From: an uncultured Desulfovibrio sp.
GTDB taxonomy: Bacteria > Desulfobacterota > Desulfovibrionia > Desulfovibrionales > Desulfovibrionaceae
Direction of reading: 5' to 3'
DNA: 64,000 bases
NCBI GenBank assembly: GCA_937889575.1
Contig: CALBYZ010000020.1
Location: 51 to 64,050 of the forward strand
Below are positions 9,012 through 28,657 of the stretch, in pieces; within the stretch, counting starts at the first letter, position 1, and each line of letters starts with the position of its first letter. The notes under the pieces were generated by a model that had not been told where the DNA came from, searched no databases, and saw nothing but the letters and a program-made list of their open reading frames with translations. The position numbers were made by a program, and so were the translations under genes.

Positions 9012-10592
9012 ATGGTCTACCGCATGCACGCAAACGCCCTGGTCGTGGGCTCGGGACTGGCCGGCCTCACGGCCGCGCTGACGCTGGCCGATCACGGCCT
9101 GGAAGTGATCCTGCTCACCTCCGGCGACGACCTCGACGACGGCAACAGCGCCCTGGCCCAGGGGGGCATCGTCTTTCGCGGCCCGGACGACTCGCCGCAA
9201 CTGCTCGAACGCGACATGCTCACCTGCGGCTGGCGCTACAATTCGCCGCGCGCCGTCAAGTACCTGGCCAAACGCGGCCCGCAGGTGGTCCAGGAGATGC
9301 TCATCGACCGCCTGCAGCTGCCCTTCGACCGCAAGGGCGACGGCTCCGGCTGGCACCTGGGCAAGGAGGGCGGCCACAGCGTGTCGCGCATCCTGCACAT
9401 GGCCGACCGTACCGGGCGCGCCATCATGGAAGGGCTCATGGCCGCGGTCAAGGCCCATCCGAACATCAAGATCCTGGTCAAGCGCACGGCCGTGGACCTG
9501 CTCACCTCACACCACCATGCCACGCTGCTCGAATTCAAGTACCAGCTGCTCAACCAGTGCCTGGGGGCCTACGTCTTAAACGAGGTCTCGGGCCAGGTGG
9601 AGACGATCCTGGCCGACTTCACGGTCCTGGCCACGGGCGGTTGCGGCAGGCTCTTCCTGCACACCTCCAACACCCGTTCCTCCATCGGCTCGGCCCTGGC
9701 CATGGCCTCGCGCGCCTTCGCCAAGGTCATGAACGTGGAGTACGTGCAGTTCCATCCGACCACGCTTTTCCACCGCGCCGACCGGCGGCTGCTCATCACC
9801 GAAGCCCTGCGCGGCGAAGGGGCGCGGCTGGTCAACGACCGGGGCGAGCCGTTCATGACGCGCTACGACCCCCGCGCGGACCTCGCCCCGCGCGACATCG
9901 TCACCCGGGCCATCCTGGCCGAGATGCTCAAGACCGACCACGACTGCGTCTACCTCGACGTGGCCAACTACGTGAAAAACGTGGCGGAACACTTCCCCAC
10001 GGTGTGCAAGGGCTGCCTCGAGCTCGGCATCGACGTCACGAAGCAGCCCATCCCTGTGGTGCCGGCGGCACACTATTTCTGCGGCGGCGTGCTCACGGAC
10101 AACGCCGGCCGCACGACCCTGGAACGGCTCTACGCCGCGGGCGAATGCGCCTGCACCGGCATCCACGGGGCCAACCGCCTGGCGAGCACGTCGCTTCTCG
10201 AGTGCCTGCTGTGGGGCTACAGCGTGGGCCAGGACATCGGCAAGCGGGCGGGGCACAAGGTCACGCTCGGCCGCCGGCTCGTGGACAGCATTCCGGACTG
10301 GGTGAGCCCGGGCTCCAACCAGAACGAGGACCCGGCGCTCATTGCCCAGGACTGGGCCACCATCCGCAACACCATGTGGAACTACGTGGGCATCAACCGC
10401 TCGTCCTCGCGCCTCAAGCGCGCCTTCGAGGATCTGCGCGAGCTCAACAAGCACCTGCACGACTTCTATCGCGAAACGCCGCTTTCCAAGGCCATCGTGG
10501 ACCTGTTCCACGGCTGCCAGGCCGCCTACACCATCACCATCGCGGCCATGCAGAACCGCCGTTCGCTCGGTTGCCACTACCGCATCGACTGA
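9012..10592 (+). CDS. nadB: L-aspartate oxidase
   Basis: VVGSGLAGL, NSALAQGGI, EGGHSVSRILH, QFHPT, LITEALRGEG, LAPRDIV, PAAHYFCGG, GANRLASTSLLE. Confidence 0.95.
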   Translation: MVYRMHANALVVGSGLAGLTAALTLADHGLEVILLTSGDDLDDGNSALAQGGIVFRGPDDSPQLLERDMLTCGWRYNSPRAVKYLAKRGPQVVQEMLIDRLQLPFDRKGDGSGWHLGKEGGHSVSRILHMADRTGRAIMEGLMAAVKAHPNIKILVKRTAVDLLTSHHHATLLEFKYQLLNQCLGAYVLNEVSGQVETILADFTVLATGGCGRLFLHTSNTRSSIGSALAMASRAFAKVMNVEYVQFHPTTLFHRADRRLLITEALRGEGARLVNDRGEPFMTRYDPRADLAPRDIVTRAILAEMLKTDHDCVYLDVANYVKNVAEHFPTVCKGCLELGIDVTKQPIPVVPAAHYFCGGVLTDNAGRTTLERLYAAGECACTGIHGANRLASTSLLECLLWGYSVGQDIGKRAGHKVTLGRRLVDSIPDWVSPGSNQNEDPALIAQDWATIRNTMWNYVGINRSSSRLKRAFEDLRELNKHLHDFYRETPLSKAIVDLFHGCQAAYTITIAAMQNRRSLGCHYRID

Positions 10593-10601
10593 CGCGCCAA
10601 T

Positions 10602-10628
10602 AAAAAAATCCCGGCTCGCACCGGGATT
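10602..10628 (-). terminator. Rho-independent terminator for hisHF (faces convergent nadB)
   Basis: AATCCCGG-6nt-CCGGGATT stem with A7 on + strand, giving a U-tail on the - strand. Confidence 0.65.
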
Positions 10629-10731
10629 CCCCACATCCTCCCCCTTTCGGGGTGGTCCAGGAGGGGCCCTTGCCCCTCCTGGCCGCCGGAGGCATTCTTC
10701 TTATCTTCTCTTGTCTATCTTTTCACTTCTC
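10629..10731. repeat. REP-like intergenic hairpin repeat, copy A
   Basis: CCAGGAGGGGC-CCTT-GCCCCTCCTGG followed by CCGCCGGAGGCA and a pyrimidine tract; its reverse complement shares 23 identical bp with copy B. Confidence 0.75.
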
Positions 10732-26569: not shown

Positions 26570-27259
26570 TTAGGGGTGCTGCGTAAGCCCGCCCGTGACG
26601 AAGGCGGCCAGGGAGCGCCCTATGGCGGCGGCGTCCTGCGCCGTATAGGCGGCGGCTTCGCTGAAATGGAGAAACGTGTTTTGGTTGCGTGCAAAGGCGC
26701 TGGCGACGATGAAAAGGGAAAAGGCGAGCGCCTTGCAGTCGATGCTCTCCGGAGCCGTGCCGCTGGCCGCGGCGACGAGTGCGGAGAACGCCTCCAGGGT
26801 CGGCCTTATCGCCACGTCGTAGATGGTGTCGAAGCTGGCGGTCGGGGTGATGAACTCCCGCTGCAACAGCAGGCTCATCCATTGCGAGCGGTTGGAGGCG
26901 AGAAGCGCCGCGGCGAGCTCCGCCACCATGACGCCGGCGCGCGCGGCAGGGGAGGCGTCGGCGTCCGTGCGCGCGGCGGCCGCGTCCAGGGCGGCGCGGT
27001 GCAGCGCGGCCAGTTCCCCGGCCACGCGCGCGACGACCGCCGCGTAGAGCCCCTCCTTGCCGGAGAAATGAAAGGCAATGGAGGCGATGTTCGTCTCCGC
27101 CGCCGCCGCCACCTCGCGGATGCCGACGCCCTCGAAGCCGCGCTCTGCAAAGAGCCGTAGTCCTTCCTCGAGCAGCCGCTCGCGGGTGCGCCGGCCCCTG
27201 GCCTGGCGTGCCCCCGCATCTTGCGTCGCATCCGGCAGGACTTCGTTTCGTTGGGCCAT
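26570..27259 (-). CDS. TetR/AcrR family regulator (CecR/YbiH-like)
   Basis: LLEEGLRLFAERGFEGVGIREVAAAAETNIASIAFHFSGKEGLY HTH. Confidence 0.92.
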   Translation of the reverse strand: MAQRNEVLPDATQDAGARQARGRRTRERLLEEGLRLFAERGFEGVGIREVAAAAETNIASIAFHFSGKEGLYAAVVARVAGELAALHRAALDAAAARTDADASPAARAGVMVAELAAALLASNRSQWMSLLLQREFITPTASFDTIYDVAIRPTLEAFSALVAAASGTAPESIDCKALAFSLFIVASAFARNQNTFLHFSEAAAYTAQDAAAIGRSLAAFVTGGLTQHP

Positions 27260-27266
27260 GTGCCGG

Positions 27267-27302
27267 AAGCTACGCCCGCCCGGGACAATGTCAATCGTTT
27301 GA
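27267..27302 (-). promoter_or_regulatory. Sigma70 promoter of tetR-MFS with overlapping palindromic operator
   Basis: - strand TTGACA (27294-27289), 16 bp spacer, TAGCTT (27272-27267); palindrome TCAATCGTTTGA at 27291-27302. Confidence 0.6.
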
Positions 27303-27418
27303 TTAAATTTGCTGCCGGCGCGACATGTGCGCCCGGGAAATCAAGGCTGGAGCCGTTTGGGGCGGGCATGCGGCAGGATACGACCCTGCCGCATGCCCGG
27401 GAGCAAGACGACCTTTGG

Positions 27419-28219
27419 CTAATTTTTCGAGAGCAGCTCCATGGCCGCGTCGACGCCGGCGTTTTCGTGGACGATGGCCGTAACCGCCTGCAACAGTTTC
27501 GCGGGCTCGGGGTCCTGGAAGATGTTGCGCCCGACGGACAGGCCCGCGCCGCCGGCCAGGACGCTGTTGCTGATCATTTCCAAAAGCCCGCGCCGGGAAT
27601 CGATCTTCGGCCCGCCGGCGATGACCACCGGCACGCAGCAGCCGGCCACGACCTTGGCGAAGCTGTCCGGGTCGCCGGTGTAGGGCACCTTGACGATGTC
27701 CGCGCCGAGTTCGTTGCCCACGCGCGCGCAGTGGGCCACGACGTCGGCGTCGAACTCGTTTTTGACCTTGGGGCCGCGCGCGTACATCATGGCCAGGACC
27801 GGCATGCCCCAGGAGACCGCGGCTTCGGTCACGAGCCCCAGGTCGTCGAGCATCTTGGCCTCGGTCTCGTCGCCGAGGTTGACGTGCACGGACACGGCGT
27901 CGGCCCCCAGGCGCACGGCTTCCTCCACCGTGCAGACGAGGGTCTTGGCGTTGGGGAAGGGCGAGAGGCTGGTGCTGGCGGAAAGGTGGATGATAAGCCC
28001 CACGTCGCGACCGCGCGCCCGGTGGCCGCAGCGCACGACGCCCTTGTGCATGAGCACGGCGTTGGCCCCGCCGGATACGATGCCCGTGACGGTTTCGCGC
28101 ATGTCCTCGATGCCCGCGATGGGGCCGACGGAGACGCCGTGGTCAAGCGGCACGATGATGGTGCGGCCGGTGTCGCGGTTGACGATGCGTTCGAGGCGGA
28201 TGGATTTGCCGATGGTCAT
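27419..28219 (-). CDS. DhnA-family class I aldolase, probable 2-amino-3,7-dideoxy-D-threo-hept-6-ulosonate synthase (archaeal-type AroA')
   Basis: [82 protein letters not shown]; Tyr-rich leader upstream. Confidence 0.85.
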
Positions 28220-28275
28220 GGTCGTTCTCCTTGCGGGTTTCGCGAAGGAGCCCGGGTCCCGGTCGGCTTTGCATG

Positions 28276-28308
28276 AAAAAGGGCCGCCGGGCGAATCGCC
28301 CGCGGCCC
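28276..28308 (-). terminator. Attenuator terminator upstream of aroA'
   Basis: - strand GGGCCGCGGGCG-ATT-CGCCC(G)GCGGCCC-TTTTT, ending 56 nt before the ATG. Confidence 0.8.
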
Positions 28309-28334
28309 CTGTCGGCGGTGTCGTGGTTGCGGCC

Positions 28335-28433
28335 CTACGCGGCCGCGCCACCCGCCGTGCCGCGAGCGCGAAGGCCGTAATAATAATACGAGCCGGTCGG
28401 AAACATGCGCGTGGCGGTCATGCGGGCGTTCAT
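28335..28433 (-). CDS. Tyr-rich leader peptide [32 protein letters not shown]
   Basis: In-frame TAT TAT TAT TAC (28388-28377), three possible ATGs (28433, 28421, 28406), TAG at 28337-28335, followed by a terminator. Confidence 0.8.
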
Positions 28434-28480
28434 GGATAATTCCCTAGCCCACGACCGGCCGGCCGTCAAGGGACTTGGCG

Positions 28481-28657
28481 CTACGGCGACGCGCAGCCCA
28501 GGGCCTTGACGACCGCCGTGAAATCCGCCTCGCCGAGGCCCGCTTCCGCCAGCTTGCGGTAGAGCGGCTCGAGCACGGCGAGCATCGGCGAAGGGGCGTG
28601 GGTCTCGGCCGCCGCCTCCACGGCGAGGCGCAGGTCCTTGGCCATGTGCTTCGCCAT
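28481..28657 (-). pseudogene. 58-aa fragment resembling the C-terminus of a 3-hydroxyisobutyrate/6PGD-family dehydrogenase
   Basis: MAKHMAKDLRLAVEAAAETHAPSPMLAVLEPLYRKLAEAGLGEADFTAVVKALG; GGAGGG RBS; no N-terminal Rossmann domain upstream. Confidence 0.65.

Follow-up and report, generated by a model that had tools for sequence, protein, structure and literature searches.

Attenuators of the pheL, trpL and hisL kind are textbook devices. In Escherichia coli pheL-pheA and trpL-trpEDCBA, a short ORF with tandem cognate codons is followed by an intrinsic terminator, a mutually exclusive antiterminator shares the 5′ arm of that terminator, and the position of the ribosome on the leader selects between the two folds. 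The nearest experimentally studied analogue of the locus described here is aroR-aroF of Corynebacterium glutamicum, in which, as summarized in PMC11802643 (citing Neshat et al. 2014), a Phe-Tyr-Phe leader attenuates the gene of a DAHP synthase, which catalyses the first committed step of aromatic amino acid synthesis, and responds to Phe and not to Tyr. In E. coli, the three entry enzymes AroF (Tyr), AroG (Phe) and AroH (Trp) are controlled by TyrR/TrpR repression and allosteric feedback (PMC11802643), and a comparative survey of 2005 listed tyrosine genes as RNA-regulated by T-boxes, not by attenuators (PMC1262725).

For sulfate reducers, Song et al. 2005 (PMC1173090, Table 7) list a “putative attenuator”, taken from Merino’s website, before the aroA′ supraoperon of D. 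vulgaris. The entry predicts a terminator and an antiterminator in a single genome, without leader peptide, codon specificity, paralogue-specific leaders or promoter geometry. Gene family and lineage are the same as here, and the entry is almost certainly the operon-type member of the family described below. Nothing else on leader-peptide attenuation in Desulfovibrio was found in open-access full text beyond this Table 7, and tryptophan and leader peptides are not mentioned in Rodionov et al. 2004.

Here, we describe a locus in a 64,000-nt stretch of DNA (the window) from an uncultured Desulfovibrio sp. Comparison of its sequence with those of relatives makes it highly probable that a ribosome-mediated transcription attenuator ties the expression of a stand-alone aroA′ copy to the availability of charged tRNA-Tyr. 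The locus has the short ORF with tandem codons, the intrinsic terminator and the predicted exclusive antiterminator of pheL and trpL, but it differs from these in that the signal codons are for Tyr, that it resembles the Rfam leaders neither in sequence nor by covariance model, that the leader ATG coincides with the predicted +1 rather than following a Shine-Dalgarno sequence, and that the stop codon lies in the predicted apical loop of the antiterminator. It shares with aroR-aroF, as that system is summarized in the passage cited, an aromatic-codon leader before the gene for an entry enzyme; the gene here encodes AroA′ (ADH-synthase family), belongs to another phylum and has no sequence relation to aroR-aroF. 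We would therefore place it in a new family of a known kind of device rather than propose a new mechanism, the noteworthy features being the apparent tyrosine specificity, the paralogue-specific leaders and the probable leaderless start.

Organization of the locus

Along the minus strand, a DUF459/PatB-like gene ends first and is followed by a gene remnant of 58 codons, the promoter, the leader, the terminator and aroA′. The coordinates of the features are given in Table 1. When the minus strand was re-read, all positions given in the preliminary description of this DNA proved correct, including those of the TTGACG box resembling a −35 element, the position of which is kept in relatives, the 32-aa leader ORF with its four consecutive Tyr codons, and the GC-rich terminator with U5 upstream of the aroA′ ribosome-binding site. 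The leader ORF, which ends with UAG (28337-28335), draws attention to the unannotated small ORFs that are missed by gene callers.

Table 1. Features of the leader and aroA′ region, in window coordinates.
Feature	Position	Strand	Remarks
−35 box TTGACG of leader promoter	28464..28469	−	Motif read; recurs in about 70 related loci
Candidate −10 box TAGGGA	28441..28446	−	17 nt past −35 box, 7 nt before ATG
Leader ORF, 32 codons and stop	28335..28433	−	A of ATG (28433) is the predicted transcription start
Putative regulatory codons UAU UAU UAU UAC (Tyr ×4)	28377..28388	−	Kept in clade
Small hairpin displaying Tyr codons	28372..28394	−	−8.5 kcal/mol, z = −3.6
Antiterminator hairpin (predicted), 70 nt	28298..28367	−	−46.1 kcal/mol, z = −3.6; basal helix covaries
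Intrinsic terminator: stem-loop 28308-28281 and U5 28280-28276	28276..28308	−	−25.9 kcal/mol, z = −3.9 (against shuffles)
Shine-Dalgarno sequence AAGGAG of aroA′	28227..28232	−	Conserved in clade
aroA′ paralogue, 266 aa, monocistronic	27419..28219	−	ATG at 28219; TIGR01949

The 58-codon ORF (28481-28657, minus strand) is the C-terminal end of a gene of the 3-hydroxyisobutyrate-dehydrogenase family (NAD_binding_11), and it ends 11 nt upstream of the −35 box. In the related loci L001 and L002, the corresponding position is taken by a complete gene of about 300 codons; therefore, what the window organism has directly upstream of the promoter of the leader is the remnant of a deletion.

The aroA′ product has a DeoC fold and belongs to the family of 2-amino-3,7-dideoxy-D-threo-hept-6-ulosonate synthase (ADH synthase). 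It scored 380.2 bits against TIGR01949, the ADH synthase equivalog (cut-off 299.45), and 402 bits against NF005556, whereas the score against the archaeal class I FBP aldolase model was 200 bits, far below the cut-off of 430. By these scores, the gene is of the AroA′ type, as the preliminary description had it. Neither aroB′ (dehydroquinate synthase II) nor a second aroA′ was found anywhere in the 64-kb window, and aroB′ was also not found beside aroA′. The partnership with aroB′ holds for the operon-type paralogue in relatives (see below).

Promoter and predicted start of the leader mRNA

A TTGAC sequence precedes the leader ATG by 35-40 nt (mostly 36-37) in about 70 related loci. When leaders were aligned on the ATG, positions −46 to −42 proved to be rich in A in many of them; TTGACA comes next, and then “TA” near −13. 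A pyrimidine is present at −1 in 69 of 71, and an A at +1. A purine-rich Shine-Dalgarno sequence before the ATG was not conserved in this alignment. The conserved TTGAC-to-ATG distance and the lack of a conserved Shine-Dalgarno sequence point to a transcription start on, or within 1-2 bases of, the A of the ATG, and so the mRNA of the leader is probably leaderless. Corynebacterial leaders lack a 5′ UTR as well.

The candidate −10 box of the window is a weak match, and the window has AGGGAA at 28445-28440. The locus could therefore be read as the same attenuator with a conventional start, in which transcription begins upstream of TTGACG, or this box is not a promoter, and the AGGGA 8 nt before the ATG is a Shine-Dalgarno sequence. 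The relatives argue against this reading, because their −10 boxes at the same place are better matches (TAGAAT in strain variant X27, 7 nt before the ATG; TATTTT in others; and in Solidesulfovibrio fructosivorans JJ, a culturable strain with a Tyr-type aroA′, the arrangement TTGACG-17-TAGAAA-6-ATG, with the leader MFTRTNATRTFFAGSYYYYGRRARGLAGGAAI), and because the purine-rich stretch is not conserved in them, whereas the TTGAC-to-ATG distance and the pyrimidine and A at −1 and +1 are.

The contigs of four true metatranscriptomes run without interruption from aroA′ through the terminator into the leader. This shows that the leader and aroA′ are on one RNA and that read-through transcripts exist. 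The ends of these contigs were at 28432 (X29), 28407 (X24) and 28380 (X23); assembled contigs mark ends poorly, although the ends fit a transcription start at 28433. Positions 28433-28586 were not covered by contigs of the four true metatranscriptomes. A contig from X22, a run of uncertain type (“RNA?”), crosses 28433 and extends up to 28596, which would suit a start farther upstream, but this contig may be DNA or an upstream transcript, and the true metatranscriptome contigs all end at or before 28432. The metatranscriptomes that match the related locus L005 gave contigs of 10-13 kb with no ends marked. Taken together, these data make a conventional, Shine-Dalgarno-led start unlikely relative to a leaderless one, although it is the best surviving of the alternatives that we considered.

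A family of aromatic leaders upstream of aroA′

The comparison set consisted of 80 loci encoding protein relatives, all from Desulfovibrionales and neighbouring Desulfobacterota, with one genome per species scanned. It was found that about 70 of the 80 aroA′ loci have an ORF of 24-41 codons that starts with ATG and contains a dense aromatic run, about 100-140 nt upstream of aroA′. Examples of such runs are QYWYYWFSCACGRGEVC, FYFWFWFSHARGQGG, RFFFFFSF..NACGLGVR and YFFYFFYFW. The preliminary description had suggested a search for Tyr/Phe runs upstream of orthologues, and the outcome agrees with its proposal: an aromatic run is general in the family, and the Tyr run is kept in the clade of the window. 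These leaders constitute a widespread leader-switch family in sulfate reducers, so far undescribed, the mechanism of which is textbook.

The composition of the run follows the genes behind it, as established by tblastn with the AroB′, PheA and EPSP synthase of one locus and by the precomputed Pfam context of the M. hydrothermalis locus. Mixed Phe/Tyr/Trp leaders precede aroA′-aroB′-pheA-EPSPS operons. Leaders with Tyr only precede monocistronic aroA′ genes (the window, L001-L006, L031, L043 and L066), and leaders with Phe only precede other monocistronic aroA′ genes (L012, L014, L018, L021, L023, L039, L040, L053, L061, L071, L073 and L080). In Desulfobacteraceae, Phe/Tyr leaders without Trp precede aroA′-pheA pairs (L055, L062, L069 and L076). 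The operon-type leader of L041, AAWMWSYWW, has four Trp in eight residues, which indicates that sensing weighted towards Trp is also within the range of the family.

Tyr-type and operon-type loci came from the same MAG in two cases (L002 with L033, and L003 with L048), and Phe-type and operon-type loci in one (L012 with L036). The Tyr-type enzymes group as a single clade in a neighbour-joining tree, whereas the Phe-type enzymes fall into at least two clades. The co-occurrence of Tyr-type and operon-type copies in single MAGs, together with the single Tyr-type clade, indicates that the window aroA′ is an extra, apparently tyrosine-dedicated copy and not part of the pathway operon. The aromatic leader itself supports a predicted role of aroA′ in aromatic amino acid synthesis.

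Several loci depart from these arrangements. L070 and L079 have two tandem aroA′ genes before aroB′-pheA-EPSPS, and in L079 the leader is ahead of the first copy. The aroA′ paralogues of L011, L019, L026, L030, L046 and L057 have no recognizable aromatic leader; because the tree shows L011, L019 and L026 as sisters to a clade of Phe-type enzymes, the leader appears to have been lost or replaced by other control. L029 and L031 are short contigs binned as Porticoccaceae and Verrucomicrobiota, respectively, that carry a Desulfovibrionaceae-like Tyr-type aroA′. The leader of L031 is identical to that of L003, and both contigs are probably mis-binned.

Tyrosine codons of the window leader

Translation of the 64-kb window in all six frames gives a single YYYY tetrapeptide, compared to 0.004 expected. 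The stretch of Tyr codons is identical in nucleotide sequence in L001, L002, L005 and L006. Three of the four codons are the minor codon UAU, the usage in likely genes of the window being 81 UAU vs 305 UAC. A second aromatic run, FFYW at 10608 (minus strand, 10590-10640), was rejected as an artefact: it is the translated U-run of another intrinsic terminator, CCCGG-UGCGAG-CCGGG-AUUUUUUU, which lies where a pair of convergent genes ends.

A run of codons for one amino acid does not guarantee that this amino acid is the signal, since the Phe-Tyr-Phe leader of C. glutamicum aroR, according to the passage cited above (PMC11802643), responds to limitation of Phe only. The leader might thus sense Phe, or aromatic amino acids in general, with the Tyr run being tolerated but not decisive; the window leader does have one Phe codon upstream of the Tyr run, and that of L003 has two or three. 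However, the Phe codons vary, and 3-4 consecutive Tyr codons are the only aromatic feature common to the whole clade of the window. Furthermore, separate Phe-only and mixed leaders are present on other paralogues, sometimes in the same genome. We therefore regard Phe or general aromatic sensing as improbable, slightly more so than a conventional leader start, and favour charged tRNA-Tyr as the putative signal.

Terminator and predicted antiterminator

The structural set comprised 72 leaders, after omission of the false positive L026. A canonical terminator of −17 to −32 kcal/mol was found in all 72, with the usual form GGGCCGC-N-GGC, loop, GCC-G-GCGGCCC and U-run. In the window, it reads GGGCCGCGGGCG-AUU-CGCCCGGCGGCCC followed by U5. 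A simple consensus scan missed this terminator because of a one-base bulge. The motif of the family terminator matched nowhere else in the window, with a pattern that, because of one extra base, also missed the window’s own terminator. In the alignment made from sequence alone, 98.1% of the cells are paired in the terminator, with double changes in 6 pairs, and the de novo consensus given by RNAalifold is the terminator.

The fold predicted to compete with it is a long hairpin with a basal helix formed by GCUCGCGGC (28367-28359), which lies within the leader ORF, and GCCGCGGGC (28306-28298) of the terminator 5′ arm. Its upper helices pair 28357-28341 with 28334-28313, with the UAG in the apical loop, and this hairpin accounts for 77% of the predicted ensemble in the window. 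The element corresponding to GCUCGCGGC is conserved in the family as GCCUGYGGYC and starts 6, 9 or 12 nt past the last aromatic codon, always in frame. It forms 10 of 10 pairs with the terminator 5′ arm in 60 of the 72 leaders, and at least 9 of 10 in 68. The stretch from the element to the 5′ arm folds as one long hairpin, with the basal helix and a variable upper helix, in every sequence, and the leader stop codon is in the upper part or in the apical loop across the family. The mean predicted energy of the antiterminators is −34.8 kcal/mol, compared to −24.0 kcal/mol for the terminators.

The antiterminator helix was evaluated on alignment A1, made with MAFFT from sequence alone and containing 70 sequences. 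It was found that 97.1% of the cells of this helix are paired; a shift of the partner by 1-3 columns lowers this share to 31-44%. The column pair 49/134 is UA in 37, CG in 15, UG in 14 and AU in 2 sequences, as raw counts over related sequences. Column 134 is an unpaired R-G mismatch in the terminator stem, and the terminator therefore cannot account for this covariation, which is the strongest single evidence for the predicted alternative fold.

The preliminary description had placed the antiterminator elsewhere, between CGCGGCC near the end of the leader (28347-28341) and GGCCGCG in the terminator 5′ arm (28307-28301). This complementarity exists, but as the antiterminator it was rejected, because the conserved, covarying helix is that between 28367-28359 and 28306-28298. 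The alternative partner that had been named for CGCGGCC, the GGCCGC just past the stop codon, was retained, as this pairing forms the apical helix in every fold.

A region 1:2 anti-antiterminator, as in trp leaders, was sought with two duplex tests. With gaps allowed, the family as a whole gave a weak excess, with a mean z of −1.2 and with p < 0.05 in 22% of the leaders. The strict ungapped test was not significant overall, and the pairing was clear only in L033, L034, L044, L047, L048, L020 and L049; in the first five of these, region 1 makes 9 of 10 pairs and directly abuts the aromatic run. In the clade of the window, neither the gapped nor the ungapped test gave a region 1:2 pairing above chance. 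Such a pairing is thus not demonstrable here, unlike in E. coli, which suggests that the default fold is one of readthrough rather than termination.

An antiterminator as the default fold, and a terminator/antiterminator pair in general, would also suit an RNA with a metabolite, tRNA or protein as its ligand (a riboswitch, a T-box or a TRAP-like system), with the ORF being incidental. We consider this very improbable, because the ORF stays open with a fixed start, the conserved element is always whole codons past the aromatic run, and the codon run varies with the genes controlled while the RNA skeleton is constant. Moreover, an Rfam search of the leader matched no family; the best score, which was unrelated, was 19 bits against a gathering score of 97, and the Trp, Phe, His, Leu and Thr leader families and the T-box were absent even at E values up to 10.

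The leader peptides are not conserved outside the aromatic run and a short Ala-Cys/Arg-Gly stretch, the codons of which are constrained by the RNA. This suggests that translation as such is what matters, and not a function of the peptide. A functional micropeptide, or a chance ORF beside an ordinary terminator of the gene remnant that ends just upstream of the −35 box, has little in its favour other than the position of the remnant and the existence of the ORF, and is scarcely credible given the recurrence in about 70 of 80 loci, which excludes chance, and the pairing of the terminator with a covarying antiterminator.

Proposed mechanism

The core of the preliminary proposal, a ribosome-mediated attenuator with Tyr codons before an AroA′-type gene, is upheld by the conserved mini-ORF, the codon run that tracks the genes controlled, the terminator and the covarying antiterminator. 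It required correction in the segment assigned to the antiterminator, in the start of the leader mRNA, which is probably leaderless, and in the nature of the gene, which is a stand-alone paralogue without aroB′ and not a member of the pathway operon. From the features described above, we infer a translated leader with its transcription start at the ATG and with charged tRNA-Tyr as the signal; scarcity of this tRNA would increase expression of aroA′ in the following way.

Transcription would start at, or within 1-2 bases of, position 28433 from TTGACG-17-TAGGGA, and the 32-codon leader would be translated as a leaderless mRNA. When Tyr-tRNA is scarce, the ribosome would stall at UAU-UAU-UAU-UAC. 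A ribosome that is stalled with an early Tyr codon in the A site would cover about 13 nt downstream, and because GCUCGCGGC begins 9 nt past the Tyr run, this element would be left free. It could then pair with the terminator 5′ arm as the base of the 70-nt antiterminator, which is the more stable fold and would form during transcription, and RNA polymerase would read through into aroA′. The small hairpin that displays the Tyr codons has a possible role as a pause hairpin.

When Tyr-tRNA is plentiful, the ribosome would melt and occupy the 5′ strand of the antiterminator hairpin up to the UAG in the apical loop. With the antiterminator blocked, the weaker terminator (−26 kcal/mol and U5) would form, and transcription would stop at about 28276. 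That the terminator would win with a ribosome at the stop codon, 20 nt beyond the conserved element, is a steric and kinetic argument. As no region 1:2 pairing above chance was found in the clade of the window, we describe the system as a three-element switch, in which the untranslated default would be readthrough.

On a wider scale, we are inclined to think that Desulfovibrionales and some Desulfobacterales meter the entry into the non-DAHP pathway with two or three isozymes of AroA′, and that every isozyme has a separate leaderless leader as its gate, with Tyr only, with Phe only or with a mixture of Phe, Tyr and Trp. As far as the open-access literature goes, the Tyr-only leader would be the first tyrosine-dedicated ribosome-mediated attenuator. 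We hold this broader proposal with less confidence than the attenuator of the window. It resembles the AroF/AroG/AroH arrangement of E. coli in that several copies of an entry enzyme would each answer to one aromatic amino acid, and differs from it in that the partition would lie in the leader peptides. If true, it would be an RNA-level counterpart of that scheme, the stand-alone aroA′ copies would be amino acid-specific isozymes, and tyrosine would join the amino acids governed by classical attenuation. The leaders would also give regulatory, independent evidence that DeoC-type aldolases of sulfate reducers serve aromatic amino acid synthesis and not glycolysis. The family, which offers about 70 naturally occurring variants as well as compensatory changes found in nature, could serve as a compact and well-conserved model of leaderless leader-peptide attenuation outside Actinobacteria.

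Other features near aroA′

A CUCCUU sequence 13 nt upstream of the aroA′ AAGGAG can pair with it (28225-28250, minus strand) and is partly conserved in the clade. As a hairpin that would sequester the Shine-Dalgarno sequence (28250-28225), it was no better than shuffled sequences (z = −1.2).

Directly after the aroA′ stop codon, there is a long perfect hairpin, CCGGGCAUGCGGCAGG...CCUGCCGCAUGCCCG (27363-27400, minus strand), without a U-run. It may be a U-less terminator or a stabilizing 3′ structure.

A gene for a TetR/CecR-type regulator lies downstream of aroA′. Its promoter (27257-27294, minus strand) consists of TTGACA (27294-27289), 16 nt, TAGCTT (27272-27267) and 7 nt before the ATG (27259). 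This gene shares the promoter-to-ATG geometry of the leader, and many mRNAs of this organism may thus be leaderless.
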